Shown here: positions 1,185-52,287 of the stretch, in pieces
How the letters are laid out: every line of letters starts with the position of its first letter
Position numbering within the stretch: the stretch's first letter is position 1
Assembly: GCA_024679065.1 (NCBI GenBank)
Contig: JAGIQG010000009.1
Coordinates: forward strand, 81,034,001-81,098,000
Reading direction: 5' to 3'
Source: Sphyrna mokarran
Lineage: Eukaryota
DNA length: 64,000 nt
Notes under the pieces: generated by a model
The model's database searches: none
The model's input: the letters and a program-made list of their open reading frames with translations, nothing else
What the model was told of the DNA's origin: nothing
Translations under genes and position numbers: made by a program

Positions 1185-4100
1185 CAGAGAGAGGGAATGT
1201 TTGAACTCGTGGCTGCGGGGATGGTGCAGGAGGGAGGGGTTCAGGTTACTGAACAATTGGGACTCATTCTGGGATAGGTGGGAACTCTACAAGAGAGATA
1301 GTCTACACCTGAACCAGAGGGGAACCAATATCTTGGGGGGAAAATTTGCAAAGGCTTTAAACTGATTCAGAGGGGGGGTGGGATCCTGAGTAGTTGGGGT
1401 GCTAAGAGGGACGAGAATAGGGGGGTCATAGATGAGAACTGTAAAGCACAGCAGCGTACGGGTGGAGTAGGACATGGTTTGAAATGCGTATACTTTAATG
1501 CAAGAAGTATTGGCAATAAGGTGGAGGAACTTGCAGCTTGGACCAGTACCTGGAACTTTGATGTTGTGGCCATTTCAGAGACATGGATAGAGCAGGGACA
1601 GGAATGGTTGTTGCAGGTTCCGGGGTTCAAATGCTTCAGTCAGAGTAGAGAAGGAGGTAGAAGGGGGGGAGGAGTGGCATTATTAGTCAAAGACTGTATC
1701 ACAGTGACAGAAAGGAAGTTTGATGAGGACTTGTCTGTTGAGGTAGTATGGGCTGAGATTAGAAACAGGAGAGGAGAGGTCACCCTGTTGGGAGTCTTTT
1801 ATAGACCTCCTAAAAGTTCTAGAGAGGTAGAGGAAAGGATTGCAAAGTCGATTCTGGACAGGAGTGAAAGTAATAGGGTAATTGTTATGGGGGACTTTAA
1901 CTTTACTAATATTGATTGGAATAGCTATAGCTCTAGCTCGTTAGAGGGGTCAGTTTTTATACAAAGTGTGCAGGAAGGTTTTTTGACTCAATATGTAGAT
2001 AGGCCAACTAGAGGTGAGGCTACATTGGATTTGGTGCTGGACAATGAGCCAGACCAGGTGTTAGACTTGGAAGTTGGTAAACATTTTGGTGATAGTGACC
2101 ACAATTCGGTTACGTTCACCTTAGTGATGGATAGGGATAGGCATGAAGATGGGGGCAGTAGTTATAGCTGGGGGAATGGTAATTATGAGGCCATAAGGAG
2201 AGAATTAGGGTGCATAGGTTGGACTAGGAAACTACAGGGACTGGGAACATCTGAAATGTGGAGCTTATTCAAGGAGCAGCTGCTGCGAGTCCTTGATAAG
2301 TATGTCCCTGTCAGGCAAGGAGGAAATGGTCGAGTAAGGGAACCTTGGTGTACTAAAAAAGTTAATTTGCTGGTTAAAAGGAAAAAGGAGGCTTATGTCA
2401 GGATGAGGCTTGAAGGCTCAGTTAGTGCAATGGATAGCTATAGATTAGCCAGGAGGGAGCTAAAGAGTGAATTGAGGAGAGCTAAGAGGGGACATGAGAA
2501 GACTTTGGCTGATAGGATTAAGGAGAATCCTAAAGCTTTCTTTAGATATGTTAAGAATAGAAGATTGGTTAGGGCAAGATTAGGGCCAGTCAGAGACAGC
2601 AGTGGGAAGTTGTGCGTGGAGCCTGAAGAGATTGGAGAGGCACTGAACAAATATTTCTCTTCGGTATTCACGCAGGGAGATGTAAATGTAGTTGTGGAGA
2701 ACACTGGGATACAGGGTTGCAAACTGGAAAGTATTGAAGTAGATAAGGAGGATGTGCTAGATATTCTTGAGGGTTTGAAGTTAGATAAGTCCCCTGGGCC
2801 GGACGGGATTTACCCTAGGATTCTCTGGGAGGCAAGAGAGGAGATTGCAGAGCCTCTGGCTCTGATCTTCAGGTCGTCGTTGGTTACGGGTATAGTGCCG
2901 GAAGACTGGAGGATAGCGAATGTGGTCCCATTGTTCAAGAAGGAGAAGAGAGACTTTCCAGGGAATTATAGGCCAGTGAGTCTTACTTCTGTTGTGGGCA
3001 AAGTATTGGAGAGAATTATTAGGGATAGGATTTATAGATTTAGAGAGAAATGAATTGATTGGGGATAGTCAGCATGGTTTTGTGAAGGGTAGGTTGTGCC
3101 TTACTAACCTTATTGAGTTTTTTTGAAAAAGTGACCAAAGAGGTGGATGGGGGTAAGGCAGTTGATGTGGTATATATGGACTTTAGTAAGGTGTTCGATA
3201 AGGTGGCCCATGGAAGGCTTCTCAGAAAATGCAGATGTATGGGATAGAGGGTGATTTAGCTAATTGGATTAGGAATTGGCTAGCAGATAGAAGACAGAGG
3301 GTGGTAGTTGATGGGAGATATTCCTCGTGGAGTTCAGTGACAAGTGGTGTACCTCAGGGGTCTGTTTTGGGGCCCCTGCTGTTTGTAATTTTTATAAATG
3401 ATCTGGATGAGGGTATTGAAGAATGGATTAGTAAATTTGCGGATGACACCAAAGTCGGAGGAGTGGTAGATAGTGAAAAGGGGTGTTCTAGTTTGCAGAG
3501 AGACTTGGACAAGTTGCAGAGCTGGGCTGAGAGGTGGCAAATGGAGTTTAATGTGGAAAAGTGTGAGGTAATGCACTTTGGCAGGAATAACAAATGTTTA
3601 GAGTATAGGGCTAATGGTAGGATTCTTAATAGTGTTGATGAACAGAGGGATCTTGGTGTATCTGTGAATAGATCCCTGAAAGTAGGCAGTCAAGTCGAGA
3701 AGGTTGTTAAGAAGGCATACGGAGTCTTAGCTTTTATCGGTAGGGGGATTGAATTTCGGAACCGCAACGTCATGTTGCAATTGTACAAAACTCTAGTGCG
3801 GCCGCACTTGGAGTATTGTGTGCAGTTCTGGTCCCCGCATTATAAGAAAGGTGTGGAGGCATTGGAGAGGGTACAGAGGAGGTTTACCAGGATGTTGCCT
3901 GGTATGGAGGGCAGGTCTTATGAAGAGAGGCTGAGGGATTTGAGGTTGTTTTCGTTAGAAAGAAGGCGGCTAAGAGGAGACCTTATTGAAGCATATAAGA
4001 TGATTAGAGGTTTAGATAGGGTGGACAGTGATAGCCTTTTTCCTAGGATGGAGAAAGCTAGCACGAGGGGACACAGCTTTAAATTAAGGGGTGATAGTTA

Positions 4101-4333
4101 TAGGACGGATATCAGAGGTAGGTTCTTTACCCAGAGGGTGGTTAGGGAGTGGAATGCCCTGCCTGCGGCAGTTGTAGATGCGCCAAGTTTGGTGGCGTTT
4201 AAGAGGTTAGTTGATAAGCTTATGGAAGAGAAGGGAATGGTTTAGTTTGGAGGGTCATTGCTCTTTTCATAATTGGTTGGCGCAACATCGAAGGCCAAAG
4301 GGCCTGTTCTGCGCTGTAATGTTCTATGTTCTA
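1185..4333 (+). mobile_element. CR1 LINE, 5'-truncated (end of ORF1 plus ORF2 with APE endonuclease and RT, frameshifted)
   Basis: ORFs 1479-3053 (YFNARS, SETW, GDFN, SDH, NYRPVSLTS) and 3229-4245 (GVPQGSVLGP, FADD); (TTCTATG)n tail; CTATTC at both junctions. Confidence 0.95.
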
Positions 4334-5760: not shown

Positions 5761-5973
5761 GTATTGGAGAACATCCCCTGAAGAAATTAGGTACTCAGTT
5801 GGAGAATCCTTGCAGACGCAATGGACCAAATGGCCTCCTTCTGCATTGTAGATATTCTATGTTTCTATGGGCTAGACGCTGGATGTTCTGAAATCAGTTT
5901 ATCCATTAACTTGCAAATATTCATTTGTTCTTTTTGCTAAATAGGGAAGAAGTTCAACTTCAACAAGAAAAGC

Positions 5974-7633
5974 ATGACAGAGCAAGAAAAGAAAAGATTG
6001 GTTGAAGCTCTTGATGGAACAAAACTTGGTGAAAAGCTGCGGGATATCTGTGAGTCTAGCAATCCTGATCTCTCACAATTCGAAAGATTAATCAAAGATG
6101 CACCCTTGGAGGATTTAGACACAGATACGTTTGGAGCAACTTTGTGTCTTGCTGCATCGAAAAATCAAGAAGATCTCGTCAGAATACTTTTGGATAACAA
6201 AGCAAATGTTAACTATCAGAGACCAGATTATGGTTGGACCCCGCTCTTTAATGCTGTTCAAGGAGACTATGAAAACATTGTTGACTTATTGTTGCAACAT
6301 GGGGCCGATCCACATCTTAGGAAGAAGAATGGAGCCACACCTTTCCTTGTTGCTGCGATAACTGGCAATGTGAATCTGCTCAAAAGGTTTCTAGACCTGG
6401 GTGCAGATGTCAATGAGACGGATGATAATGGTTTTACTGCATTTATGGAAGCAGCACAGTATGGGAATGAGGACGCTCTACAATTCCTCTTCGAGCAGAA
6501 TGCTGAGGTGAACAAGCACAGGGAAGTGTCTGATGCCAAAAAGAAGGTGGGAAGAGGTGGAAAGACTGCCCTGATTGACGCTGTGGTACAAGGCCATGAG
6601 CTCATTGTTGAGATCCTATTGGACAACATGCATGCCGATGTTAATGCGCTTGACAACCTCGGCAAAACAGCATTGCACCATGCCTTGCAGAAAGATAACC
6701 AGGAAATTGTGAAGACTCTGTTAGACCACGGAGCTCATGTTAACATCATAGACAAAAATAAAAACATACCTCTCAATATTGCATTGGCTAAAAATACCTT
6801 GCAATTCTCAATGCTGGAACTGCTGTTGCAACGTACACAGAATCTGAAAGTCCGGGATAGCGAGGGGAAAATGCCATTGATCCTTGCAGCAGAGAAGAGG
6901 AATTCAAAGGTGGTTAAACTGCTGCTAGGGGATCAAAGAGTTGAAATTGATGCACAGGATGATTTGGGGCGGACTGCCTTACTAGCAGCAGTCGAAAATA
7001 AAGATGCTTCGTTGACGGAAATATTGTGTAAGGGAGGGGCTGATGTCTCCTGTGGGGACCAGAGGGGGGATACACCGTTACTAATAGCCAAAAGGAACTA
7101 TGACAATAAAACAGCAAAGATATTGAATAAATATGGGGCAGAGATTACATCCAACAGAAAACCTCTTTCAAGATGGAAGAAGCATAGTGTGCGCTGGCAT
7201 GATACTCTGGGAAAACTGCAAGAGGTACAACGGGCTCCTATTGGAAAAGTGAAGCTATCCACAATGCCAGATTTTAAGATTAACAACAAGACGGAAGTCT
7301 ACCTTGGTTTCTATAACAATGAGAGTGAAGTTGCAGTGAAATGTCACAGGAAGGGCAGTGAAGAAGCCAAAAAGGAAATGGATTGCCTCAGAAGCCCTGC
7401 CATCAATGACAGCAGTCTGTTTGTTAATCTCTTGCATTGGGAAAATGACGAATGTTGTGATTACTTGTGTCTGGATCTCCACGAGTATAATCTCGAGGAA
7501 TGTATGGCCAACTGGCCTGAAGAAATTCAAAAGGAGGCTCCTAAAATAATGAGGCAGTTGGTTGAGGCCCTCCAGATTTTGCACGGCGTTGGGTATGCTC
7601 ATCGGGATTTGCATCCAACAAATATCCTCAGAG
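5974..7633 (+). CDS. RNASEL: RNase L (2-5A-dependent ribonuclease), first coding exon: ankyrin repeats and N-terminal part of the pseudokinase
   Basis: The ORF contains GWTPLFNAVQ, LRKKNGATPF, GFTAFMEAA, RNYD, YLGFY..EVAVK and HRDLHPTNIL, matching RNase L. Acceptor ttttgctaaatAG ends at 5944; donor AG|GTAATT at 7634; phase 1. Confidence 0.96.
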
Positions 7634-8419
7634 GTAATTCTTTGAGCATTTTCATATATTTTCGACTGCACTTAATTCTGAATTTCTCCTCGTGACGCTT
7701 TTGTGTTTTTTTCACTAATTGCTTTAAATCTGAGCCCATCATTCTCATTCCTTCCATGAGTGCCAACACTTTCTCCCTGTCTATTCTGTCTAAAACTTTT
7801 CAGGATTTTGAATGACACTTCAAAAAGATGTCATTGACTGTCACTTTCAGAGAGGTCTGCTTGTGAATGGAACTTCTTTCTTTAGTTTGTTGGTAAGGTC
7901 AAAACACACAGTGGTGCAATGGCTGCTGCCTTACAGTGCCGAGGACCTGGGTTCAGTTCCGGCCTCGGGTCAGTGTCTGTGCAAAGTTTGCACGTTCTCC
8001 CCGTGTCTGCGTGACTTCCCTCAGGGTGCTCTGGTTTCCTCCAAGATGTGCAGGTTAGGGGGTATTGCCATGATAAATGCATGGGGTTATAGGGATAAGG
8101 CAGGATGGGTGGGCCTGAACTGGAACCATGTGATTAATTTGTATTGCCAGAATGAAAAGATGCACAGTTTGCATTCGTTCAGCATAAATTTTAATTGCTA
8201 TCAAGTAGGAAATAACCAAACATGATCGCCACAGTGCTGCTGCCTCTGCACCAGCTGAAATGCTGGAAGCAATCTCAAGAGAAGGATTATGCCTCGCAAA
8301 AAGAAATGTGTTTCAGTTCAGTGCAAAACGAACACAAATTTCTCCTTGGAACCATAAAATGGTTACAGTACAGGAGGAGTCTCATTGTGCCTGCCATGCC
8401 TTTGAATGAGCAATTCACA

Positions 8420-9900
8420 TAATGCCATTGCCCCACTTTCTCCCCGTAACTCTGCACATTCTTCTTTTTCAGATCATTCCTTTTTAAATGCCTCAGTTGA
8501 ACCTGTCCCCACTACATTCTCAGACAGCGCATTCTCTTCCCTAACCACTCATTGTGTGGAAAAAGCCTCCCCTTGTGTCTCCATCGCTAAGAATCATAGA
8601 GTTGTGGAATTTTGCAGCACAGAAGGAGGCCATTTGACCTACTGTGAGTGCACTGGCTCCCAAAAGAACTACCCAGCTAGTTCCATTGTCCAGCCCTGTC
8701 TCCATAGCTCTAAATTCATCACGTTTAAATATGCGTCCTGCTCTCTTATACCTCTATCACTGTGTCCTCCAGCACATTCCAAATCCCAGCAACTCTCTGA
8801 GTAAAGCTTTTCCTCCTCATCGCAATCCTCGCTCTCTTGCTGGCCACCTTGAAGTTGTGGTGCTGAATCACTGACACACCAACTCGTGGAAACTGAATAT
8901 CCTTCTTTACCCTGTCAAAAGTGTTCATCGTTTTGGACACCTCAGTAAGGTCACCTCTTAATCTTCTCTGCTCCGAGGAGAATAAACCCAATTTCTCTAA
9001 TTTCCTTTGCACTCTCTCTAGGCCTTTAACATCCTTCCTTAAATAAGGTGCCCAGAACCGAAAATAATACACCACATGTGGTCTGACCACTGATTTGAAG
9101 AGATGCAGCATCACTTCCTTACTTTTGTACTTTATGCCTCTATTTATAAACCCAGGAATCCTATAACCAATTGCTTCAACTTGCCTGGGTACTGTCAGAA
9201 AAATTATGCACTTGAACTCTGATGCTCTTTTGTCACTGTACTCCTCTCAAAGTTGTATCGTTGAATCTGTATGTTTCTTCTACTGAATGCATTACCTCAC
9301 GTTTCGTTGCATTGGAATTCATCTGCCAGGTGCCTGCATGGCCAACTTGTCAAAGTTCATCTGAAGTCACTAAGCAGCATCCTCACAAGTCACTGTTCTC
9401 CCTAGCTTAGTATCATCTGCAATTTTAGACATTTTTGCCCTCAACACCAATTTCTAGATCAGTTATATAAATCAGAAAAAGCAACACTGATCCCAGGGGA
9501 GCACCTCTTCCAACTTATCTCCAATCTGAGAAATGTCCGTTAACACCTGGCCTCTATTCCTGTCTCTTAGCCAACATCAAATCCATGTTGCTAATCAATC
9601 CCAAATATTTCTAATATTCTAATGCTTTCTGAAAGTCCAAATATACAACATCCTCATCCACTCCCTGTGTCACCTCTTCAAAGAACTCAACAACGTTTGT
9701 AAGATATGATCTGCTCTTGACAAAGCATGTTGACTGTCTAGAATTAACTTATTTTTCTCTGTGTATATTTATCTTATCCTGTATTATGGCCTCCATCAGT
9801 TTTCCTACAGTTGATGTCAGGCTTACAGTTTCCTGGGTTATCCATTGCCCCTTTCTTTAACAACGGCTTCGTATCTGCAATCCTCCAGCTTTTTTTACTA
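8420..9900 (-). mobile_element. Decayed CR1 fragments
   Basis: ORF 8746-9114 (VRPH..WAPYL..LERVQR..LRGDL) and degenerate RT upstream of it. Confidence 0.75.
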
Positions 9901-10519
9901 ATGATTATAAATCTGTACTTTTTTTTTGTTCTCGATCCTTCCACGGATGAGAACAATCTCTCCTACCAATTCTGTTCAGACAACTTTGAACATCTCAATC
10001 AACTCTCGTCTCAGCCTTCTCTATGGAAAGCAATCCTAACTTCCCCAATAGAAACCCTACAGTACAGAAAGAGGCCATTTGGCCCATCAAGTCTGCACCG
10101 GCCACAATCCTACCCAGGCTATAGCCCCATATCCCAACATATTTATCCACTAATCCCTCTAAACTATGCATCTCAGGACACTAAGAGCAATTTTTTTTAG
10201 CATAGCCAATCAACCTAATCCGTACATCTTTGGACTGTGGAAGGAAACCAGAGCATCCAGAGGGAACACACACAAGGCACGGGAAGAATACTATAGATTT
10301 CCAGGCCTTTTTTGCGAAGATCAGGCGTCAGATGAAGCCCCAGAAAGAGTGCAATGTCTTTTCTTGTCAGCTTGGACCTTGTTTGTCTCCCTTGGGGACC
10401 ATGAACTAGATTCAATTTGAATTTGGTTTTTGGAACAAGCAGCGAATGGGTTTGGGTTTGCCTGGTCCACACTGCCACACAGGCTTTGTAACTTTAAGAA
10501 TGGAGTAAAATAAATTTTT

Positions 10520-10735
10520 TAAAAAATACTGCAGATATTGCAATCTGAAGGAAAAAAAAAAATGCTGGAAAACTAATCAGATCTGGCAGCACCTGTGGAA
10601 GAGAATCGGAGTTAATGTTTAGAGTCTGAAATGACTGAAGAATCATACAGACTTGAAACTTTAACTCTGTTTTTCTCTCCAGATATGCTGCCAGATCTGC
10701 TGAGTTTTTCCAGCACTTTCTGCTTTTGTTCCACA
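10520..10735. mobile_element. Palindromic Penelope-derived remnant, second family
   Basis: Arms GCTGGAAAACT..CAGATCTGGCAGCA / TGCTGCCAGATCTG..TTTTCCAGCA; degenerate CTGAAGA..GAAAC core. Confidence 0.6.
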
Positions 10736-11469
10736 TATAATGTGTTTGTTCTGTACTGTGTCTCTATCAATAAAGCCCAGGATACTGTTCTTTGTTAAGT
10801 GATCTTGCCACCTGTCCTGCCACCTTCAATGATTTATGCACATTTGTACCAAGCCTTTGTACTTTATTGCCTCTTTTAGAATTATATCCTTTTATTTTAT
10901 TTTGCCTCTTCATTTCCTTCACATCAAAATGAATCACTTCACGTTTTTGCACATTGAACTTCATACATCACTTGTGCAAATATTCCACCATCTTGCCTAT
11001 GCCCTTCTGAAGTTCTACATTATCCTCTTCACAATTCACACACTTTGTGTCATCCACATGTTTGGAAGCTATTACTGAGATCTAGCTAGTTATCATATCT
11101 GAGGAAGAGCAGATATCCCAACACCGATCTCAGGAGAATATCACTGGCAACCTCCCTCCAGTCCAAGACACAGCATTCATCACTACACTAGTTACTGAGA
11201 ATAATGTCACTCTGGGGAGAGCTCACACAACAGGCCTATGTTCCAAATGAACCTTCTTCCAGCCTATTACCAGAATATTCATTTCTCCCTCGCGTGTTTA
11301 CACAGCTCCTCCTGAAATGCTGAAAAAATGTTCGCATTTAAACAAATCTGCTCAACTTGATGAATTTAAAGAAACAAATTTTATTTGAAAGTAATTGGTT
11401 GTACTGAAAATTAATTTGGACTACTTTTGCACTGTGTCTGCTACAATACAATGCTTTACTTTTCCACAG

Positions 11470-11645
11470 ATGTCAAAAAAAACTTTCGTCTGGCAGATTT
11501 TGATAAGAGTGTGAATTGTGCTAAGGGTTCAACTGTGGCCAAATCCTGCAAAGCGACCTGGGAGGCATCCGAGATCCTTGAGAAACTGAAAGACTCAGAA
11601 ACAGCAACCTTCGAAGCAGCTGAACTTTTCAAGGCAGATGTACAG
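11470..11645 (+). CDS. RNASEL: RNase L coding exon 2 (LADFDKS motif and activation-segment region)
   Basis: Acceptor tttccacAG; joins in phase to give NILR-DVKKNFRLADFDKS; donor CAG|GTGCAC at 11646; phase 0. Confidence 0.92.
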
Positions 11646-12429
11646 GTGCACACTGCAGTTTCTCTCTCTCTCTCTGAGGCATCAAGAGTAAAGGGGGTCG
11701 TGCAGCTAATGTTGAGACGAGTAAAAGGTAAATGGGGTAAACAAAGAGCTGGTAGCAATTAGATCAGATGATGCCGAGTTCAAGTTTAAAGCTGTTGAGA
11801 GGAAGGTTGATTGAAGTAAGGAGCTCAACTGTTTTGGATCTATCTTTTTATTCCTTAGAGTTGGGAAGGTGTTGTTGAAGAAGCCTCAGTGAATTCTTGC
11901 AACGTTTCTTGTACACAGTACACATGTCTGCCACTATGTGTTTGTGATGGAGGGAGTGAATGTTGAAGATGTTGGACACAAACAAGTGGGGCAGCTTTGT
12001 CCTGGATCGTGTCCGGTTTTTTGAGTATTGTTGGAACCACGCTCATGCGAGTGGAGAGTGTTCCATCACACTCTGAAACGTGGACGCTGAGGTCTGAGAG
12101 GACACAACGAGGAGGGGGAAGTGTGGAGAAGTTGAAACCTGATTCACTAATGTCCTTTAGGGAAGGAAATCTGTTGTCTTTTACCCTACAATTGACTCCA
12201 GACCCACAGCTATGTGGTTGACTCATAGCTACCTTCTGAAATGGCCGATTGAGACACTCAAATCAAGTGCAATTAGAGATGGACAACAAATGGTGTTTAG
12301 GAAGGACTTGAAGCAATAGAAGCTGTTGAACTGTGTGACTATATGCCATTGTGTTGTAAAGGTAGTTGGCATGTGTGCTTTAACAGGGGACTGGAAATAA
12401 TGAAATATTACTCATGGTATGATGTATGG

Positions 12430-12589
12430 AGTAAACACAGTAAAGTCTCACAATACCAGGTTGAAGTCCAACCAATTTATTTGATAGTAAACCCACAAGC
12501 TTTACTATCAAATAAACTGGTTGGACTTTAACCTGGTGTTGTGAGACTTCTTATCGTGTTTACCCCAGTCCAACGCCCGCATCTCCATC
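12430..12589. mobile_element. Miniature Penelope-like hairpin element (opposite orientation, HHR deleted)
   Basis: Inverted arms; 11-bp TSD ATGATGTATGG (12419-12429, 12590-12600). A smaller copy lies at ~22642-22717. Confidence 0.72.
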
Positions 12590-14600
12590 ATGATGTATGG
12601 TGTCACAGAGTAATTTATTCTGAGAGTATACTCTGTAAGCAGCCTATCTGTGTTGCAGAAACACCCTTAATGCTGGTAACCTGGAATCTATAAATAGTGA
12701 AGACTAACAATAAGCGGTTCATATTGAAACATACCAATGTCAAGCTCCTCATACTTGAAACATCACTGCAGCACTGGGACAAGGTCAAAAGTGAAAAACG
12801 AGAAAGGATAGACACTATGCATAGTTCTTTAAATACAAATGTTGTGTTGTACTGAAATGGCAGCATCCTATATGTATGCAGCTGTCTGCTACTGGTCAAG
12901 CCTATCCAAAGAGAAGCTCAGATACAGATACACCACTTGGTTGAAGCAGATTCATATAATCTCAGGTGCGTGTAGCAGGCTTTGTCGCTAACTGAACTGA
13001 ACTGAAGTAGCAGTGATGTTGACTGCACTCTGCCCTTGACCTCAGTGCCCTGATGTAGGCTCCTGGGAAATGCCTGCTGAGTGCTGCTTGAAGTGGGACT
13101 GGAAGCAGAGAGGATTAGTTGTAAGGAGATCCATACTGAGAGTGACAACATGCTTAACAAGCAGCTCAGCTACTGAGCACTTAGAGGGAAATCTGAGGAC
13201 ACGCTCATTGGTTTCAAGTCTGGACTGCACACATGTATCTGCGGAAGCTGGAGTTGCAGACTGATCAAGGCGGAATAAATGTCATTTCCTCAATTTCAAG
13301 CTGACCAGTATCAGGGATTTCGCTGGTCTTTTTAATTAATTTGGCTCTTTCTAAAACGTATTCTTTCACGGGATGTGTGTGTCGCTGGCTGGGCCACATT
13401 TGTTGCCCAACCCTAAGTGCCCTTGAACTGGTTTGCTCGCCATCGCAGAAGGTAATTAAGAGTTACATTGCTGTGGGTAAGGACAGCAGATTTCCTTCCC
13501 TAAAGAACATTGGTGAAGCAGATGGGTTTTAACTATTCACAACGATTGCACGGTCACCATTTTTGAGATGATCTTTTAGTTCCAGATTTATGAATTGACT
13601 AGCACAGTGGGATTTGAACCTGTGACCCCAGAGCATTAGCCTGGGCCTCTGGATTACTAGCCCAGTGACGTTCCCAATACGGCCATAAGGAAGATAATGT
13701 TGCTTTTACTTTGGTGTTCCCTGTGTTATTAGATACCTTATTAATATTTATTAAAAACAGTATGTTGGGGAGGCAGTGGTATAGTGGTATTGTCACTGGA
13801 TGAGTAATCCAGTGGCCAAGGCTAATGTTCTGGGGTCACAGGTTCAGATCCCACGTGGCAGCTGGTGGAATTGAAACTCAATTCATAAATCTAAAAAAAA
13901 CATTATAATTAGCTTTGTCTCCCTTGGGAGTTTATTGTGCAAGCTTTCAGAAGATAGGAGGGAACCTGTGACAGGGCAGAGGTCAGTACAGGAATAGGCC
14001 CTGGACAGGAATGGGCGGGAGGATGGTTTGAGTAATGGACTGGGCTTCATTCACAACCCTTTGTAGTTTCTTGTGGTCTTGGGCAGAGCAGGAGAATACC
14101 AAGCTGTGATACATCCAGGAAGCCTCTGCTAATTATGAAAACATAATTAGGGATCCTTCCTTTCCCACCCTATCTTAGTATATGTCTAGCTGCCCCTAAG
14201 GTGCCGCTATCATACCTACTCCTGCTACCTGTTTGGGCTGCGCATTCCAGACATTCACCACCCTCTGTGTAAAAAAAAAAACTTGCCTCGCACATCTCCT
14301 CTAAACTTCTCCACATGCAACTTAAACCTATGTTCTGTAGTACTTTTCTACCCTAGCAAAGAGCATCTGATTATCCGCACTGTCCACGTTACTCATAATC
14401 TTGTAAAATCTCTCTCTGCATTGAAAATTAAAACATAATGAAATATAAAAAAACAAATATTTATAAAATGAATCTGAGGGGGTGGTAAAACAGAGTTGCA
14501 TTTTAATTGGTGTGTTGTATATTCATGGAGCTGGGATTTGACTGGCTTTCATGCCGCTTGTCAAAATGTTGAGTCTAAAGCAGTTTTTTTCACTGGACAG

Positions 14601-14818
14601 ACTCTTGGATGGCTGCTGCATTATGTTATGACTGGAGGGAAGGATCCATATAGCTCTGAGGAGGATGTGCGTGAGAATAAACCTTCTCTCGATCCGGATC
14701 TTTGCAAACCCCAGAATGCTGAAGCCAAAGATTTCATCGAGTGCTTGTTAGCACCAGCAGGGAAGAGAGCTACACTGAGCGAGATCAAACAACATCCACT
14801 GCTGTGGAAAGATGAAGG
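14601..14818 (+). CDS. RNASEL: RNase L coding exon 3 (pseudokinase C-lobe)
   Basis: Encodes TLGWLLHYVMTGG...EAKDFIECLL...HPLLW; acceptor ggacAG; donor GG|GTAAGT at 14819; phase 2. Confidence 0.93.
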
Positions 14819-15268
14819 GTAAGTCCAGCTGGCTTAGGCAATGTTCAGAAAGATCTGAGTATCCATAATTCCTAAATGTGCTGAGAAAGGGGTTGAGTGT
14901 TTAAAATTTCCTATCAAATTCTGGTGTGCGCTAAGAGTGGTATCAGCAGAGCTACTGATATCACTGGATTGTTCCTCATTATGGGTCATAGAATCACAGA
15001 GTTATAGAATTCCTGCACTGCAGAAGGAGGTCATTCAGTCTGTCGATCTGCATTGACCACAATCCCACCCAGGCCCTATTCCCGTAAACCCACATTGACT
15101 AGGCCAATCAACCTAACCTTTGGACTTTGGGAGGAAACAGAGCACTCAGTGGAAACACACCCAAACACGGGGAAAATGTACAAACTCCCCACAGACAGTG
15201 ACCTGAGGCTGTAATTGAACCCGGGTCTCTGGTGCTGTGAGATAGCAGTGCTAACCACTGTGCCACCA

Positions 15269-16090: not shown

Positions 16091-19000
16091 CATAGAACAT
16101 AGAACATTACAGCGCAGAACAGGCCCTTCGGCCTTCGATGTTGCGCCGACCAATTAGGAACAAGCAGTGACCCTCTAACCGATATCATTCCCTTTTCATC
16201 CATAAACTTATCTACTAACCTCTTAAATGCCACCAAACTTGGCGCATCTACAACTGACGCAGGCAGGGCATTCCATACCCTTACCACCCTCTGGGTAAAG
16301 AACCTACCTCTGACATCTGTCCTAAAACCACAACCCCTTAATTTAAAGCTATGTCCCCTCGTGCTAGCTTTCTCCATCCTAGGAAAAAGGCTATCACTGT
16401 TCACCCTATCTAAACCTCTAATCATCTTGTATGTTTCAATAAGGTCTCCTCTTAGCCGCCTTCTTTCTAACAAAAACAACCTCAAATCCCTCAGCCTCTC
16501 TTCATAAGACCTGCCCTCCGTACCAGGCAACATCCTGGTAAACTCCTCTGTACCCTCTCCAATGCCTCCACATCTTTCTTATAATGTGGGGACCAGAACT
16601 GTACACAATACTCCAAGTGCGGCCGCACTAGAGTTTTGTACACTTGCAACATGACGTTGCAGCTCCGAAATTCAATCCCCCTACCAATAAAAGCTAAGAC
16701 TCCATATGCCTTCTTAACAACCTTATCGACTTGACTGCCTACTTTCAGGGATCTATGCACAAATACACCAAGATTCCTCTGTTCATCAACACTATTAAGA
16801 ATCCTACCATTAGCCCTATACTCTACACGTTTGTTATTCCTGCCAAAGTGCATTACCTCACACTTTTCCACATTAAACTCCATTTGCCACCTCTCGGCCC
16901 AGCTCTGCAACTTGTCCAAGTCTCTCTGCAAACGAGAACACCCCTCTTCACTATCTACCACTCCACCGACTTTAGTGTCATCTGCAAATTTACTAATCCA
17001 TCCTTCAATACCCTCATCCAGATCATTTATAAAAATTACAAACAGCCGGGGCCCCAAAACAGACCCCTGAGGTACACCACTTGTAACCGAACTCCACAAT
17101 GAATATCTCCCATCAACCACCACCCTCTGTCTTCTATCTGCTAGCCAATTCCTAATCCAATTAGCTAAATCACCCTCAATCCCATACATCTGCATTTTCT
17201 GCAGAAGCCTTCCATGGGCCACCTTATCGAACGCCTTACTAAAGTCCATATGTACCACATCAACTGCCTTACCCCCATCCACCTCTTTGGTCACTTTTTC
17301 AAAAAACTCAATAAGGTTAGTAAGGCACGACCTACCTTCACAAAACCATGCTGACTATCCCCAATCAATTCATTTCTCTCTAAATAACTATAAATACTAT
17401 CCCTAATAATTCTCTCCAATACTTTACCCACAACAGAAGTAAGACTCACTGGCCTATAATTCCCTGGAAGGTCTCTCTTCCCCTTCTTGAACAATGGGAC
17501 CACATTCGCTATACTCCAGTCCTCCGGAACCACACCCGTAACCAACGACGACCTGAAGATCAGAGCCAGAGGCTCTGCATTCTCCTCTCTTGCCTCCCAG
17601 AGAATCCTAGGGTAAATCCCGTCCGGCCCAGGGGACTTATCTAACTTCAAATCCTCAAGAATATCTAGCACATCCTCCCTATCTACTTCAATACTTTCCA
17701 GTTTGCAACCCTGTACCTCAGTGTTCTCCACACCTACATTTACATCTCCCTGCGTGAATACCGAAGAGAAATATTTATTCAGTGCCTCTCCAATCTCTTC
17801 AGGCTCCACGCACAACTTCCCACTGCTGTCAATGACTGGCCCTAATCTTGTCCTAACCAATCTTCTATTCTTAACATATCTAAAGAAAGCTTTAGGATTC
17901 TCCTTGATCCTATCAGCCAAAGTCTTCTCATGTCCCCTTTTAGCTCTCCTCAACTCACTCTTTAGCTCCCTCCTGGCTAATCTATAGCTATCCATTGCAC
18001 TAACTGACCCTTCAAGCCTCATCCTGTCATAAGCCTCCTTTTTCCTTTTAACCCGTGAATTAACTTTTTTAGTACACCATGGTTCCCTTACTTGACCATC
18101 TCCTCCTTGTCTGACAGGGACATACTTATCAAGGACTCGCAGCAGCTGCTCCTTGAATAAGCTCCACATTTCAGATGTTCCCAGTCCCTGTAGTTTCCTA
18201 GTCCAACCTATGCACCCTAATTCCCTCCTTATGGCCTCATAATTACCATTCCCCAGCTATAACTACTGCCCCCAGCTTCATGCCTATCCCTATCCATCAC
18301 TAAGGTGAACGTAACCGAATTGTGGTCACTATCACCAAAATGTTCACCAACTTCCAAGCCTAACACCTGGTCTGGATCATTGCCCAGCACCAAATCCAAT
18401 GTAGCCTCACCTCTAGTTGGCCTATCTACATATTGAGTCAAAAAACCTTCCTGCACACTTTGTACAAAAACTGACCCCTCTAACGTACTAGAGCTATAGC
18501 TATTCCAATCAATATTAGTAAAGTTAAAGTCCCCCATAACAATTACCCTATTACTTTCACTCCTGTCCAGGATTGACTTTGCAATCCTTTCCTCTACCTC
18601 TCTAGAACTTTAGGAGGTCTATAAAAGACTCCCAACAGGGTGACCTCTCCTCTCCTGTTTCTAATCTCAGCCCATATTACCTCAACAGACAAGTCCTCAT
18701 CAAACTTCCTTTCTGTCACTGTGATACAGTCTTTGACTAATAATGCCACTCCTCCCCCCCTTCTACCTCCTTCTTTACTCCGACTGAAGCATTTGAACCC
18801 TGGAACCTGCAACAACCATTCCTGTCCCTGCTCTATCCATGTCTCTGAAATGGCCACAACATTGAAGTTCCAGGTACTGATCCAAGCTGCAAGTTCCTCC
18901 ACCTTATTGCGAATACTTCTTGCATTAAAGTATACGCATTTCAAACCATGCCCTACTCCACCCGTACGCTGCTATGCTTTTCAGTTCTCATCTATGACCC

Positions 19001-20300
19001 CCCCTGTTCTCATCCCTCTTAACATCCAAACTACTCAGGATCCCACCCCACCTCTGAATCAGTTTAAAGCCGCCTGCATAGCCTTTGCAAATTTTCCCCC
19101 CAAGATATTGGTTCCCCTCTGGTTCAGGTGTAGACCATCTCTCTTGTAGAGGTCCCACCTACCCCAGAATGAGCCCCAATTGTTCAAGATCCTGAACCCC
19201 TCCCTCCTGCACCATCCCCGCAGCCACAAGTTCAAACATTCCCTCTCTCTGTTCTTCTCTAAACTATCCCGTGGCACAGGCAAGAGTCCAGAGATAACCG
19301 CTCTGTCTGTTTTGGCCCTAAGCTTCCACCCCAACTCCATAAATTTCTGTTTAATATCCCCTTCCCTTGTCCTACCTATATCATGTGTCCCTACATGAAC
19401 TATGACTTGGGGCTGACTCCCCTCTCCCTTAAGAATCTTAAAAACCTGCTCTGCGACATCCTGGACCCCGGCCCCTGGGAGGCAACACACCAGCCCTGAG
19501 TCCCGTTTATTACTATTTACTCTCCTATCTGTCCCCCCAACTATGGAGTCTCCAATTACCAGGCCCAATCTCTTATTCCCCCTACCCACCTGAGCATTCC
19601 CAGCAGGCTCACCCCCAGAGACCTGCTCCCTTTGGCCATCTCCAGTTGATTCCTCCTCAACTGTAGCCTCCAGGACAGAAAACTTCTTTTGGAGGGGAAC
19701 AGCCCCAGGGGATTGTCTCCCCGATTGCTTCTTACCCCTCTTCCTAATAGTTACCCAAGAATCGCTTTTAGGAGTGACTATCTGTTTGTAACTCCTGTCA
19801 ATATCCACCTCAACCTCCCGAATTATCCTGAGTTCCTCTAATTCCAGCTCCAGCTCCTTAACACGATCCTCAAGGAGCTGCAAATGGGCACACTTCCTGC
19901 AGGTGTAATCAGCAGGAACACCACTGGTGTCCCTCACCTCGTACATACCTCAGGAGGTGCAACGTACTGCCTGCACTGCCATCCCTGATACTTTAATTTC
20001 TAGGAGAGAAAAAAAAACTTCCCACACACTTTTATTATTAGGTTAGAGGAGGGGGGAGGGTGGGATACTCTACCTGTGTAGAGTATCGGGTTTCCTCTCT
20101 GCACCAATTTATAGAGTCAGAGAAAAACTACAACTACCGGCAAGCCTCCTAATGACGACTTCCGGTTTCCAGTTAGTTTAAAAAATGGCAAGAAACTACC
20201 ACCGCTCGCTACTTTAACTGAAAAGAAAATGTTAAAAATTACTTAACACTCGAACTTTACACTCTCCCAAATCGCTGCCTCTCCGTGCTGCTCCACAGGA
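16090..20300 (-). mobile_element. Near full-length CR1 LINE (5'UTR, ORF1 with Zn-finger, leucine zipper and SGNH esterase, ORF2 EN-RT), disabled
   Basis: ORF1 from ATG 19982 with premature TGA at 19950-19952, then CRKC, LEDRVKELELELEEL and GDSIV; ORF2 in five frameshifted pieces; (TTCTATG)n tail at 16090. Confidence 0.95.
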
Positions 20301-25956: not shown

Positions 25957-27630
25957 TAAAGAACAAAGAACAAAACAGCATGGGAAACAGACCCTTCGGC
26001 CCAACGAGCCCGCGCCGCCACCTCTACCCGCGATCCCTGTTATGTTTATAGATCTATAGATTAAAAACCAAATTTGAGACAATTTAGGGAGAATTTGTTT
26101 TGCCAATTAGCCTAAGAGCACATCTTTGGGATGTGGGAGGAAACCGGTGCGCCCGGAGAAAACCCACGCAAGCACGGGGAGAATGCACAAACTCCCACAG
26201 ACACAGGCCCAAATCCATGTATCTGCACAGCACAGCGATAGTCACTGAGCTGTCGTGTTGCCCATCAGATGGTCTAGGTCAAGCGTACACTAATGACGTG
26301 AAGCACTAGGATACTCTCGAAAAAGATCCAAGAGCAGCCCTCTCACGACCCATCGCGTGTATGCCCCTCGTTAGACAACAAGGTGGACCAAAGCACCTGT
26401 AGGATAAAAACAAGTACATCAATATCATCATCTATTTACACACTTCCCAGGAACTCCCAAGGCTCACAATCCCTATTTTAAATCAGTTTTCTATATCCCT
26501 CCATTCCCATTCTGTTCATGTGCCCATCTAAGTATTTCTTAAATAACTCTAGACTACCTGCCCCCACCACTTTATTTGGCAGTGCATTCCATACCCCCAC
26601 CACCCTCTGTGTGAAAAAACTCCCTCTAGCATCCAAATTATACCTTACCCCCCTCATCCTAAGCCCGTGATCCCTAGTGCTATTTGAGTCCATCCTAGGA
26701 AAAAGCTTACTTATCTACTGTTTACTCTATCTATCCCCTTCATAATCTTGTACACCTCTACCAGATCTCCTCTAAGTCTACGTCTTTCTAAGGAAAACAG
26801 TCCCAATTTGCCTAACCTCTCCTCGTAACTCAGACCTTCCATACCAGGCAGCATCCTGTAAACCTCCTCTGCACTCTCTCCAGAGTCTCCACGTCCTTCC
26901 GGTAGTAAGGCGACCAGAACTGGACGCAGTATTCCAAATGAGGTCTAACCAACGTTTTATACAACTGCAACATTAAAGGCCAGCTCTTGTACTCTATACC
27001 CCTTCCTATAAAGGCTAGCATACTATATGCTTTCTTCACAACCTTCTCCACTTTCTCTGCCACCTTCAGAGACTTGTTCACCTGCACCCCCAGGTCTCTC
27101 TGTGTTTCTACACTCTTAATAGGTCTACCCTTTATCATATACCTCCCCCCTACATTCTTTCTCCCGAAATGCATCACCTCACATTTATCAGGATTGAATT
27201 CCATCTGCCATCTGTCTGCCCAAGCTACCAGCCTATCTATGTCCTGCTGCATCGCCTGACAATGCTCCTCACTATCCGCAAGTCCAGCCATCTTTGTATC
27301 GTCTGCAAACTTGCTGATCACTCCACTTACTCCCTCTTCCAAGTCATTTATATATATTACAAATAGAAGAGGTCCCAGTACTGAGCCCTGTGGCACACCA
27401 CTAGTCACCGACCTCCAGCTAGAAAAACACCCTTCCACTATTACTCTCTGTCTCCTATTACCAAGCCAGTTACTTATCCATCTAGCTACCTGTCCTTGTA
27501 TCCCATTAGCCTTGACCTTCTCAACTAACCTCCTATGAGGGACTTTGTCAAACGCCTTACTAAAATCCATACAGGCGACATCAACGGCTTGCCCTTCGTC
27601 CACCGTTTTCGTGTCCCCCACCGTTTTCGT
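25957..27630 (-). mobile_element. CR1 subfamily with a long SINE-containing 3' UTR, 5'-truncated
   Basis: RT ORF 26830-27645 (GVPQGSVLGP, FADD) and 26478-26693; ~520-nt 3' UTR; (TTCTTTG)n tail; nested in an older + strand CR1. Confidence 0.88.
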
Positions 27631-27828
27631 AATGTGGGAAAACATGAAGTCTTTAATTTTGAAAGAAAGAACAAATGAGCAGAGTATTATTTAAATGGAG
27701 AAAAACTGTAAGAAGACAGAATGCCAAGAGACTGGAGGCTACTTGTGCACGGAACACAGAAAGATGGCACACAGACATGACAGGGAGGCTAATGGAATAT
27801 TAGCTCTTATTTCAAGGGGGTTGGAGTA

Positions 27829-30303: not shown

Positions 30304-30436
30304 AAAAAGCCAGTTTGTCCAAGACCTTGCTAATGAACATGATGTGACAAAACGGAATCAATCCAGTCAGATAGTCCGGATTCTCAACCAAGCAGGCAAG
30401 GACCAGGAAAGATCATTTCACAGGTGGACAGAGGAG
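30304..30436 (+). CDS. RNASEL: RNase L coding exon 4 (start of KEN/RNase domain)
   Basis: Encodes KSQFVQDLANEHDVTKR...SFHRWTEE; acceptor tttccttccAG; donor GAG|GTACAA; phases fit the neighbouring exons. Confidence 0.92.
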
Positions 30437-32113: not shown

Positions 32114-32232
32114 ATTCGCCCAGAAGTACTGAGTGACATGAATAAGAGACAAAAGAATCCATATACGGACACCACCAGTGATCTCCTGAAATTCATCAGA
32201 AACCTAATCCAGCATTTTCCTGAAAAGAAAAA
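32114..32232 (+). CDS. RNASEL: RNase L coding exon 5 (RNase catalytic motif)
   Basis: Hand translation gives IRPEVLSDMNKRQKNPYTDTTSDLLKFIRNLIQHFPEKK, containing the KEN motif DLLKFIRNLxxH. Acceptor ttttcttttAG; donor AA|GTACGT. Not in the supplied ORF track. Confidence 0.93.
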
Positions 32233-34210: not shown

Positions 34211-34337
34211 TTCACATGTTTACAGTTTCATGGAAAGCGCAGAGAGTTATTGCTTTGGATCATTTCCGGATCTTGTCATCGCTATCTACAACGCTGTGAA
34301 GAATACCGAGTGGAAGAAGCACTTTCCAAAAGAATAG
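34211..34337 (+). CDS. RNASEL: RNase L last coding exon
   Basis: Hand translation gives (N)SHVYSFMESAESYCFGSFPDLVIAIYNAVKNTEWKKHFPKE*, matching the RNase L C-terminal FPDLVI..NTExxKHFP. Acceptor cttttttcAG; TAG at 34335-34337. Confidence 0.92.
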
Positions 34338-43622: not shown

Positions 43623-43951
43623 CTAGGCACATTCTGAACTCCTGATGCTCTTGCTGAGGGGAGAGGAGAGGCTCACGTGGGTGAGGGCACAGGAGAAGCG
43701 AGCGTTGCACTCCCAGTCGGAGCCAGAGAGGGTCAGCAGGCTGCTGACGCTGTAGGTGTTGTCCGAAGCTCGCAGGTAGTTGCTGGTCTGAATCCCGTTG
43801 GAAATGGCTGCACCGTCCTTCTTCCACTTCACCTCCACCTCATCGGGATAGAAGTGATTGGCAAGGCACACCAGGGTGGCAGTGCCCTTGGTCTTGACCT
43901 CCTCCGGGGAGGGGGGCAGCAGGGTCAGCGTGGGTTGTGAATTCTCACGAG
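43623..43951 (-). CDS. IGKC: Ig light chain constant exon (kappa/NS4-like)
   Basis: (T)RENSQPTLTLLPPSPEEVKTKGTATLVCLANHFYP..VKWKKDG..YSVSSLLTLS..FSCALTH..RSSECA*; acceptor tctctttcAG. Confidence 0.95.
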
Positions 43952-46900
43952 CTGAAAGAGAAGAGAAGGAATTTTAATCACTGCCATTTTCAGCCTTTCA
44001 ACAACCCGAATATTAACTGGGATCAAATCAGTGTCAATGATTTGATGTTGCAGAATTCTGAAAATCCATTCGAGGGGAACGTTTTTAACCAGTACGGAGC
44101 AATCCCAACAAGAGAAGGGTCAGTTTTAGAGAATGAAACTCAGCATGTGGAAGGTGTATCAGTGAGAGAGCATTTGGGTAATAATGATCATAATAGATTT
44201 AGAGTAGCTACGGAAAAGGGGAAAGATCGATCAAGAGTAAACGTTTTAAATGGGAAAAGGCCAATTTCACTAAACTGGAATTTGCCAAAATGGAAAGGAA
44301 ACAGTGACTTGAAGGTAAATCAGTGTCAGAGCAGTGGGAGGATATTCGAGCTGGAGATAGAGTTCAGGACATATATGTTCATCAAGCAATAGTGTGGGAC
44401 ATTGCAAAGAGAATAACTAAGGATTAAATAGGGCTGATTAGAGAGCAAAAAGGTAACTTGTGTGTGGAAGGACAAAGTTGACATTGTGGTTCAGGAGAGG
44501 AGGGATTGTGAAATAATTAATGGGATAATGATGGTGAGCGAGGAGATATTAATGTGTTTATCACCATTTAAAATGGAGAAATTCCCAGGGCCGGGTGAAA
44601 TGTATCCCAGGATGTGAAGGGAAGAACAGGAAGAAATAACAGAGACTCTGACCATTATTTTCCAATCCTCTCTGAGTACAGGTGTGGTATGGGTGGACTG
44701 GAGGATAGATCACGCTTTTTAAAACTAAAAGCTGATGGAACCCAAGGGAAAGTGGCACATTTGAATTCAAATTAGTTCCGTGTCTGAAGGTAAAGGTTTG
44801 ATTTGAAGCTGGTTAAATCATTTTGCAATCTTACTGAAACTGTAAAGAAGATTATTGCAAATTCAGCACTGAAATGGTTAATTTTGAGAGTATTTAAAGA
44901 CACAGTGTCCCTTTAAGAGACTGTTAACCAATCAGGAAGCTGGAACTATTGCTCAGTGTGTCTGGGGGAAACAAGTTGAGCTTCAAGAAACCTCAGATCA
45001 CACACAGATCAGGAGAATTTTATCCCAGAACATTGGAGCAGACTTGGATCAACACACTTCACACAGGATTCCCATTGGCTGGTGTAGAAACTTTGAGATT
45101 TCATTGCAAACCTTACTGTCCAGCACTGGGCTGAGGTCAAGGGTGAGGCTAGAATTAGTCTCAGTGTCCAGGGGTCAGACAGGGTCACTGCTCCGAATGA
45201 CCCCATGAACTCTGGAGGGTATGAGTATGTGGAGAATGGGTGAGAATCTTCAATCTCAAAGACAGAATTACATTTCTATAGCACCTGTCACCACCTCAGA
45301 ATGTCCTAATGTGTTTTACAGCTCATTGCGCACAGCCAGATCCCAGGGAACAGAGTGAAAAAGAACAGATAAGCAGATTTGTAGTGATGTTGATTGAGGG
45401 ATGAATATTGACCAGTTCACCGGGGTGAACTCCCCTGCTCTTCTTCCAATAGGGCCATGGGATCTTTCACACCCTCTGAGAGGGCAGATATCTGATTGTC
45501 TCATCTGAAAGATGGGAGGCCTGTAGTTTAAGGGGGGATATGACAGGTGCTGGCCCTTTCCCCATGAAGATTTTGGAAGTGGATGGGGAAAGTAGGAAGT
45601 GAACTAGAGAAACATCTTTGTTGCTACTGAAACTCTTGCTATCTGCTCAGTCACATCTAATAAACACACAGACACATCATAGAACATAGAACATAGAACA
45701 TCAGACAAACATCAGTCTGTTTCTGTGGATTCTCTGCTGCTTTCAGTTCAATGAAGAGTGCAGGAGGACATGCCAGGAGCAACAACAGACAGACTTAAAA
45801 ATGAGGTGTTAACCTGGTGAAGCTACAACAGAGACTGTGTGCCAAACAGCAGAAGCAGCAAGTGATAGACAGAGTTAAACCATCCCACAACCTATGGATC
45901 AAATCTAAGCTCTGCAGTCCTGCCACATCCAGCCGTGAATGGTGGTGGACAATTAAACAACTCACTGGAGGAGGCACCACAAATATTCCCATCTTCAATG
46001 ATGGAAAAACCCAGCACATCAGGAGAAAAGATAAGGCTGAAGTATTTGCAGGAATCTTCAGCCAGAAGTTCTTAGTGTATGATCCATCTTGACCTTCCCC
46101 GGAGGTCCTGAAGACTTGTACTCCAGAACTTCCCGTGTCCGTAACCAAGCTGTTCCAGTACATCTACAACACTGGCATCAACACAACATTGTAACAAATT
46201 ACCCGATTATGAACTGCACAAAAAACAGGATAAATCCAAACCACACAATACCCACCCCATCAGTCTACTCTCGATCATCAGCAATGTGATCTGAACATAT
46301 CCAGAGCGATACCAAGCAGCACTTACTCAGCAATAATCTGCTCACTGACACTCAGTTTGTGTTCACCAGGATCACTCAACTCCTGACCTCATTACAGTCT
46401 TGGTTCAAACATGGACAAAAGAGCTGAACTCCAGAGGTGAGGTGAGAGAGACAGTCCTTAACATCAAGGTAGCATTTCAGCAAGTGTGGCATCAAGGAGC
46501 CCTCACAAAACTGGAGCCAATGGGAAAACACTCCACTGGTTGGAGTTGTACCCGGCACAAAGGAAGATGGTTGTTGTTTGGAGTTTAACTCTACAATCTA
46601 TATTAATGAGCTGAATGAAGGGAATGAGAGGAATGTCACTAAACTTGCTGATGATAAAATGAAAAATAGAAATGCATGTTGTGAGGAGGATCCAGAGTCT
46701 GAAAAGGGATAGAGATCGGTTCAGTGAGTGGGGAAACATCGACAGATGGGGAATAATGTGGGAAAATGTGAAGTTGTCCACTTTGGCAGGAGAATAGAGC
46801 AGGGTACTAGTAAACTGGGGAAATTTTATCGAGTGATCTGGGTGTCTTTGCATCCAGGAACAGCAAAAAATTAAGAAGGCGAATGGAATGTTGCTCTTCA

Positions 46901-51961: not shown

Positions 51962-51989
51962 GGTTTTTGTAAGGCTCTGTATCACTGTG
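51962..51989 (-). other. V recombination signal sequence, 12-bp spacer
   Basis: Minus strand CACAGTG + 12 nt + ACAAAAACC, a perfect consensus. V-12/J-23 is the kappa-type configuration. Confidence 0.97.
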
Positions 51990-52287
51990 CAGGACCAGCT
52001 GTTCCATTGCTGACAGTAATAATCAGCGACATCCTCATTCTGAACATTGCTGATTGTCAGGGTGAAACTTGTCCCAGATCCACTGCCGCTGAATCGGTCG
52101 GATACTCCTGATGCAGCATTTGATGCATAGTAGATCAGCAGAGCCGGTTTCTGTCCTTCTCGCTGTTGGTACCAATTCACATTGCTGCTAACAGATTGAC
52201 TGGCCGTACAGGTGATGGTGGCGGTCTGGCCCAGGCTCACTGACAGCACCGCGGGGGTCTGGGTCATGATGATATCTCCATTGATAC
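51990..52287 (-). CDS. IGKV: Ig light chain V segment (kappa/type III-like), germline unrearranged
   Basis: [55 protein letters not shown], followed directly by a 12-RSS. Confidence 0.96.

Follow-up and report, generated by a model that had tools for sequence, protein, structure and literature searches.

RNase L and IRE1 are the described systems closest to the gene analysed here. IRE1 (human, mouse and yeast) has a kinase–KEN fold, and its kinase is preceded by a lumenal sensor domain and a membrane helix. The RNase L proteins of human and pig (PDB entries 4OAU, 4OAV, 4O1O and 4O1P) consist of ankyrin repeats, a pseudokinase and a KEN ribonuclease domain, in that order. The human RNase L chain carries the catalytic loop HQDLQPQN and has 14 residues between the DFD motif and the αF Asp; human IRE1 carries HRDLKP.N, DFG and GTEGWIAPE, with 42 residues over the same interval. 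An earlier sequence-only reading of the DNA studied here had given these features (about 14 residues, and GT.GW.APE for IRE1), and they agree with the human chains. Mammalian RNase L, although inactive as a kinase, binds ATP together with two cations; a review attributes this inactivity to a missing activation loop and substrate site (PMC4718504).

The window, by which we mean the whole stretch of 64,000 nucleotides analysed (Sphyrna mokarran, assembly GCA_024679065.1, contig JAGIQG010000009.1, positions 81,034,001 to 81,098,000 of the forward strand), encodes RNase L on its + strand. Six coding exons, all with GT–AG introns, give an open frame of 810 amino acids, as the sequence-only reading had proposed. 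The best sequence and fold match is human/pig RNase L, with which the shark protein shares the domain order, DFD, the β3 Lys, the αC Glu, the catalytic Asp, the Asn and the conserved ankyrin and KEN residues. It differs in having 30 more residues between DFD and αF, including WEASE and an αEF helix, HRD for HQD, a fixed subdomain XI Arg, no glycines in the Gly-rich loop and one more ankyrin repeat (approximately 32 residues). The motifs VAVK, KKEM, HRDLHPTN, DFD, ATWEASE and DVQTLG and the interval of 44 residues are all where the sequence-only reading had placed them (Table 1). We regard the gene as a real, ancestral variant of a known protein, apparently undescribed and most likely still a pseudokinase. 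Our preferred reading, to which we give a probability of about 0.74, is that the kinase domain of shark RNase L is a nucleotide-binding pseudokinase in which the retained segment is an ordered αEF brace of the C-lobe and serves neither catalysis nor phospho-sensing.

Splicing, homology and fold of the segment

Contigs from four public runs, the RNA nature of which is presumed, were compared with positions 5900–15000 of the window. A contig of run X1, with no differences from the window in the listed exon pieces, joins 7633 to 11470 and continues to 11615, passing all earlier GT sites of exon 2 and the TWEASE codons. The earlier in-phase donors at 11472, 11511 and 11535 are ruled out by this read-through, and the use of an earlier donor in exon 11470–11645, which the sequence-only reading had raised against itself, was not seen. 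Single contigs of runs X2, X4 and X8 (related organisms, three studies) bridge exons 2 and 3 in register, with coordinates that fit the 11645/14601 junction exactly; this junction is not listed for X1. The register of these contigs also contradicts an in-phase GT at 11640 as donor. Both junctions are thus supported by transcript-type contigs, and the segment is spliced into the shark RNase L product. The 11646 donor does not match the consensus strongly. Use of an in-phase GT at 11658 would lengthen the start of αF by four residues (11646–11657); a four-residue insertion is found at the same junction in two annotated Chiloscyllium isoforms.

Two sets of RNase L sequences were used for comparison. 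The cartilaginous-fish set (n = 17) comprises the window protein and 16 database proteins, including 14 named species (one with two proteins), and covers sharks, rays and one chimaera. The lobe-finned-fish and tetrapod set (n = 111; the bony-line or short-loop set) was drawn from the best 120 of 1079 matches plus further searches and is mostly mammalian, with 17 named non-mammalian proteins. A set of outgroup kinases was formed from the 113 measurable sequences among 140 outgroup matches. The long segment is found in all 17 cartilaginous-fish sequences, always with 43–44 residues, and the W-x-x-x-E motif is found in none of the 111 bony-line sequences. The interval from DFD to αF is 13–19 residues in 109 of the latter, 27 in one coelacanth protein and 145 in a coelacanth paralogue, and all 19 additional proteins from reptiles and birds have a short interval as well; the long segment is therefore not common to most non-mammalian RNase L, a possibility that the sequence-only reading had left standing. 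By group, the bony-line lengths are 27 in the coelacanth, 17–19 in lungfish, amphibians and lizards, 15 in turtles, a crocodilian and birds, and 14 in mammals. In the second coelacanth (Latimeria) RNase L, P0289, HRD is kept and a repeat-expanded loop, the one of 145 residues, replaces the activation segment and lacks W-x-x-x-E.

The long segment is homologous to the APE region of the kinase activation segment. In a 150-row alignment made with MAFFT, WEASE was placed on the W-x-APE motif of the relatives. An activation-segment profile made only from 95 non-RNase L segments scored the window segment above 1000 of 1000 shuffles, again with WEASE aligned on W-x-APE, so that the segment did not prove unrelated to APE; the profile score was reached by 6 and 2 of 1000 shuffles for two orthologue segments, and absolute scores were low (4–12 bits). 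In kinases, the subdomain XI Arg is the usual salt-bridge partner of the APE Glu. Glu588 and its presumptive partner Arg668 are both present in 17/17 cartilaginous-fish sequences. The subdomain XI Arg is found in 15/15 measurable fish kinase–KEN proteins (22 examined) and in only 13/111 short-loop sequences; where the segment is gone, the Arg is free to vary. Mean modal identity among the cartilaginous fish is 0.95 over residues 582–592, 0.62 over 566–581 and 0.74–0.79 over the rest of the protein. Conservation is centred on the packing motif and not on the loop, which supports a structural role. At residue 578 (11541–11543) the window has Lys where 16/16 orthologues have Ile or Leu, and the matching X1 contig shows no difference.

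A structure of the Mustelus orthologue was predicted with AlphaFold from a 150-row alignment. The segment is ordered in the model, with predicted local distance difference test (pLDDT) values of 91–97 over residues 561–610, a helix corresponding to αEF at 589–597 and strands at 577–580 and 601–604. The kinase–KEN part of this model overlays human IRE1 with a Z score of 35.8 and a root-mean-square deviation of 2.7 for 373 aligned residues. An ESM Atlas search returned kinase and kinase–KEN clusters only. Exon 2 alone gave no match among solved structures at E values up to 10.

Relatives and history of the segment

The best non-RNase L matches among 1.84 billion representatives were animal kinase–KEN proteins of ray-finned fish, lungfish, corals, amphioxus and a brachiopod. 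A tree of 57 kinase–KEN domains was built without the activation-segment columns; its row P0045, grouped as fish, is a brachiopod protein. The RNase L rows (n = 22) formed one clade (100/100) in which the window protein was sister to Mustelus. RNase L nests among the animal kinase–KEN families (99/96), apart from nine IRE1-like rows (plants, fungi, a beetle and others). Formal testing did not reject a clade joining RNase L and IRE1 (P value of the approximately unbiased test, p-AU, 0.057, in a tree without a vertebrate IRE1 row), and a sister relationship between RNase L and the bony-fish kinase–KEN family was neither shown nor rejected (p-AU 0.363). The tree favours animal kinase–KEN families, and not IRE1 itself, as the nearest long-loop relatives. 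Chu et al. derive RNase L from a pre-existing kinase–RNase protein, and IRE1 is not named as its source in the available part of their text (PMC10400998).

These families share with shark RNase L the linker region, TEVY in β2 and DxQ at αF; WEA occurs in 14/113, and some have ankyrin repeats. They differ in keeping HRD-x-Lys, DFG, the Gly-loop glycines and GT in register, and in having other N-termini (CARD, Pyrin), and to judge by these motifs they look like active kinases. Five kinase(-KEN) proteins of lungfish and of ray-finned fish, the latter reported to be without RNase L, combine catalytic motifs that look intact with N-termini of the ankyrin, CARD or Pyrin type (P0023, P0026, P0294, P0029 and P0032) and are candidate immune kinase–ribonucleases. 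IRE1 shares the fold and a similar total length from DFx to αF (42, compared with 44 in the shark) and differs in the division of that length: the DFG-to-Glu interval is 31 residues against 26 from DFD in the shark, and the Glu-to-αF interval is 14 against 21. IRE1 also has a Gly-rich loop, basic β9 residues and GTxGWxAPE in the canonical register, and the N-terminal half of shark RNase L is formed by ankyrin repeats in place of the IRE1 lumenal domain and membrane helix.

All outgroups carry the segment, and the simplest history is therefore an ancestral segment that was kept in cartilaginous fish and lost in the bony line; sequence comparison makes the long segment the likely ancestral state of RNase L. 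The bony-line rows did not form one clade in the tree, yet a single clade was not rejected (p-AU 0.317); the loss in the bony line may have been single or repeated. On this history, DFD and a His in place of the catalytic Lys would have been present already in the RNase L ancestor. Cartilaginous fish would have retained the αEF module, while their P+1 loop became two residues shorter and their Gly loop decayed, and the module would have been deleted in the bony line. The sequence-only reading had seen the shark protein as an intermediate between an IRE1-type ancestor and the mammalian pseudokinase. An ancestral, partly eroded state remains the best description, but the protein is a mosaic, with a Gly loop more eroded in sharks than in mammals, and the outgroup is probably formed by animal kinase–KEN families instead of IRE1 itself. 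The axolotl (Ambystoma) has annotated RNase L-like proteins (P0022, P0176 and P0177); loss of the pathway has been inferred in the ancestor of frogs and salamanders (PMC10400998, available part).

Catalytic features and competing explanations

Contrary to the sequence-only reading, the segment is not full length. The interval from DFD to the APE-type Glu is 25–26 residues in 17/17 cartilaginous fish (26 in the window), compared with 31 in human IRE1 and 27–37 (mode 29) in the 113 outgroup kinases. In 101/113 outgroup kinases, Gly-Thr or Gly-Ser occupies the fourth and third positions before the Trp, and in none does it stand directly before it, whereas Gly-Thr or Ala-Thr immediately precedes the Trp in 16/17 cartilaginous fish. 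The short interval and the GT adjoining the Trp place the loss in the P+1 loop (the substrate platform), which is therefore two residues short in 17/17. The Thr in question, Thr583, is Ala in Scyliorhinus canicula and is kept in the other 16.

The sequence-only reading had taken DFD, the Lys-to-His change and a degenerate Gly loop as arguments against full kinase activity, and the wider sampling bears this out. The catalytic-loop Lys, present in 103/113 outgroup kinases, is His547 in 17/17 cartilaginous fish. The DFG Gly is Asp in 16/17, including the window; Narcine has DFG. No Gly is found in the Gly-rich loop of 12/17 cartilaginous fish and one in 5/17, compared with two or more in 100/111 bony-line sequences, and the third Gly of the loop is present in 1/17 compared with 13/15 measurable fish kinase–KEN proteins. 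Lys456 and Glu468 are kept in 17/17 and the catalytic Asp545 in 16/17. The VAVK Lys and the αC Glu are, however, less distinctive than had been supposed, since short-loop RNase L keeps them too (107/111 and 111/111), along with the catalytic Asp (108/111), the Asn (111/111) and the DF-Asp (111/111).

The exception at Asp545 is the chimaera Callorhinchus milii. All four records that cover the kinase (a fifth is a fragment) read HRNLHPTH, with Asn for the catalytic Asp and His for the metal-binding Asn, and have an intact long segment. The protein otherwise resembles the shark proteins in its segment (GTWEASEV), DFD and extra ankyrin repeat; its Gly loop is shorter still, and it branches as the sister of all elasmobranch sequences (100/100). 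In yeast, according to Chu et al., growth was slowed and mRNA shortened by C. milii RNase L together with OASa, and no slowing was seen with an RNase-dead variant (PMC10400998, available part). 2',5'-Oligoadenylate (2-5A)-dependent RNA cleavage may thus be taken as indirectly reported for the chimaera orthologue with OASa in yeast. On the Callorhinchus sequence and the yeast result, the segment can persist and the enzyme can work without the catalytic base.

In the preferred reading, 2-5A would bind the ankyrin repeats, the protein would form a back-to-back dimer with ATP/ADP-Mg in the kinase pocket and the KEN domain would cut RNA, all as in mammalian RNase L. Trp584, Glu588, Ile589, Leu590 and Phe601 would be packed against the C-lobe, Arg668 holding Glu588 in a predicted contact. 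Several observations weigh against this reading. Lys456, Glu468, Asp545, Asn550 and Asp563 are all kept in 16/16 elasmobranch sequences together with a segment predicted to be ordered, and the C-lobe parts blamed for the inactivity of mammalian RNase L are the parts that sharks keep. HRD Arg544 is present in 17/17 cartilaginous fish, compared with 6/111 short-loop sequences, and a Ser or Thr lies four or five residues before the Trp in 16/17 (Ser579 in the window), although in no single fixed column and not in Chiloscyllium. Of the 150 alignment rows behind the high-confidence Mustelus model, 93 were non-RNase L kinases, and AlphaFold run on 14 shark and ray rows only left the kinase unresolved, with pLDDT below 50 over residues 523–589. 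The chimaera is a single species in which catalysis could have been lost independently, and the identity of the construct tested in yeast with the records analysed here is assumed.

The five invariant residues suit an elasmobranch RNase L that is still a weak protein kinase, a dual kinase–ribonuclease like IRE1, catalysis having been lost solely on the way to the chimaera and to bony vertebrates. Further points in favour are the APE-type Glu with its partner Arg, the Thr that precedes the Trp and the DFG of Narcine, and kinases without a Gly loop can be active (PMC6442604, available part). The same five residues are nevertheless kept in inactive mammalian RNase L, and their retention is for this reason explained by nucleotide binding; two missing P+1 residues, His for the catalytic Lys, DFD, the absence of Gly-loop glycines and the Ala of S. 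canicula all argue against phosphotransfer, and two or more independent losses would be needed. We consider such an activity quite improbable. It is unlikely, too, that shark RNase L is a pseudokinase tuned by phosphorylation, in which another kinase would phosphorylate the loop Ser (Ser579) and the phosphate would dock on the HRD Arg and shift 2-5A-dependent RNase activity, in the manner of IRE1. In IRE1, Arg611 and the HRD Arg hold a sulfate that mimics the loop phosphate (PMC4536996, available part), and a basic residue just before the αC Glu, at the position of Arg611, is present in 13/17 cartilaginous fish. The same basic residue also occurs in 54/111 short-loop sequences, and the β9 Lys or Arg (DFG Asp +5 or +6), present in 97/112 outgroup kinases, is found in 0/17. 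The Ser and Thr of GSTVAKS (Ser574 and Thr575), for which the sequence-only reading had proposed phosphorylation, vary freely among orthologues, and no vertebrate kinase was present in the yeast in which the chimaera enzyme worked (PMC10400998, available part). HRD as a mark of sharks was rejected, as Arg also occurs in the short-loop proteins of two caecilians, musk deer, chinchilla and toucan and in the coelacanth paralogue, that is, in two mammals among others.

That the long segment stems from an error in the gene model, or was inserted later in cartilaginous fish and is unrelated to the kinase segment, has very little probability left and is largely refuted. The failure of exon 2 alone to match a solved structure, the low profile scores, the weak donor at 11646 and the fresh loop expansion of the coelacanth paralogue speak for it, but contigs carry the segment spliced in, it is common to all 17 sequences, WEASE lines up with W-x-APE where this would be expected and the partner Arg has been kept along with it. 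We hold it doubtful that sharks and rays have the only surviving RNase L in which the kinase still works or is switched by loop phosphorylation.

Gene features and implications

The coordinates of the coding exons and of the kinase motifs are given in Table 1. The closest database protein is Mustelus asterias RNase L, with 89% identity over the part searched. Against the window, Mustelus RNase L shows 79–85% identity over exons 1–4 and 6 (85% for exon 1, where contigs begin at 5944/5945) and 51% over the exon-5 region, where the alignment extends into the intron. Pfam finds ankyrin repeats, a kinase and Ribonuc_2-5A (KEN) in the Mustelus orthologue, and every part maps onto window exons. The labels 'shark' and 'RNase L' are right because of this match, the Pfam make-up and the placement in the tree.

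Table 1 Features of the RNase L gene in the window
Feature	Position	Strand	Description
Coding exon 1	5974..7633	+	ATG 5974, acceptor 5945; ankyrin repeats, ANK–kinase linker, kinase N-lobe, catalytic loop
Gly-rich loop position	7276..7308	+	no Gly before β2 Tyr
VAVK	7330-7341	+	motif present; β3 Lys456
KKEM	7369-7380	+	motif present; αC Glu468
HRDLHPTN	7600-7623	+	motif present; catalytic loop, residues 543-550
Coding exon 2	11470..11645	+	DFD, activation segment, shortened P+1 loop, αEF, αEF–αF loop, αF Asp610; 81% identity to Mustelus
DFD	11496-11504	+	motif present
GSTVAKS	11526-11546	+	motif present
ATWEASE	11553-11573	+	residues 582-588; GTxxWxAPE homologue with Thr–Trp spacing shorter by two residues; Glu588 in the position of the APE Glu
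DVQ/TLG	split by the 11645/14601 junction	+	αF Asp610
Coding exon 3	14601..14818	+	αF to αI; subdomain XI Arg668 at 14766-14768
Coding exon 4	30304..30436	+	start of KEN ribonuclease domain; from protein alignment and frame
Coding exon 5	32114..32232	+	KEN domain with Tyr746, Arg758, Asn759, His763; from protein alignment and frame
Coding exon 6	34211..34337	+	coding to 34334 plus stop; acceptor 34211 inferred, 34226 also in frame

Among the ankyrin positions that contact 2-5A, Trp88, Asn93, Gln96, Lys117, Phe154, Glu159, Tyr163 and Arg183 are the majority residues of the 111 bony-line sequences, and Arg194 replaces Lys. In the KEN domain His763, Arg758 and Asn759 are present in 17/17 cartilaginous fish and Tyr746 in 16/17. 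His763 is equivalent to human H672, and the H672A variant of RNase L is inactive (PMC10400998, available part). The extra ankyrin repeat of cartilaginous-fish RNase L, absent from the coelacanth, lungfish and tetrapod proteins, lies in the 2-5A sensor at approximately 6680–6800 (residues ∼240–275) and may change the dimer geometry.

The RNase L gene is flanked and interrupted by long interspersed nuclear element (LINE)-like endonuclease and reverse-transcriptase frames at 1302–4245, 16491–19949, 26833–27690 and 62920–63234. The frame at 26833–27690 gives a Pfam RVT_1 match, and a weak integrase zinc-binding match is found close to the window's end. The − strand carries an immunoglobulin light-chain-like V exon at 51989–52280, with a heptamer-12-nonamer recombination signal at its end (51989), and a C1 exon at 43626–43973 on the same strand lies approximately 8 kb beyond it; both are tail to tail with RNase L. 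Between the V and C1 exons, a simple search for motifs gave no J segment.

The literature was searched for RNase L together with activation segment, P+1, APE or cartilaginous fish. The feature was not found in titles and the beginnings of abstracts, most subscription papers, including two structure papers with possibly revealing alignments, being outside reach. In the single paper on fish RNase L, neither 'activation loop' nor 'phosphoryl' occurs.

RNase L is a textbook pseudokinase, the inactivity of which is ascribed to the missing activation loop and substrate site (PMC4718504, available part), and cartilaginous fish provide a natural version with most of this region. The series of 44, 27, 17–19, 15 and 14 residues, together with the Asp-to-Asn change of the chimaera, offers ready proteins for asking whether catalysis or the segment was lost first; as read from the sequences, the series says that catalysis would have gone before the segment. 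If a working or switched kinase were true of the elasmobranchs, the step from dual kinase–ribonuclease to pseudokinase could be assayed on living proteins: those of elasmobranchs would be active, that of the chimaera inactive despite its retained loop, and those of bony vertebrates inactive and without the loop. The finding is a useful, testable piece of pseudokinase evolution and not a new system; it would mean far more if any shark protein showed kinase activity.

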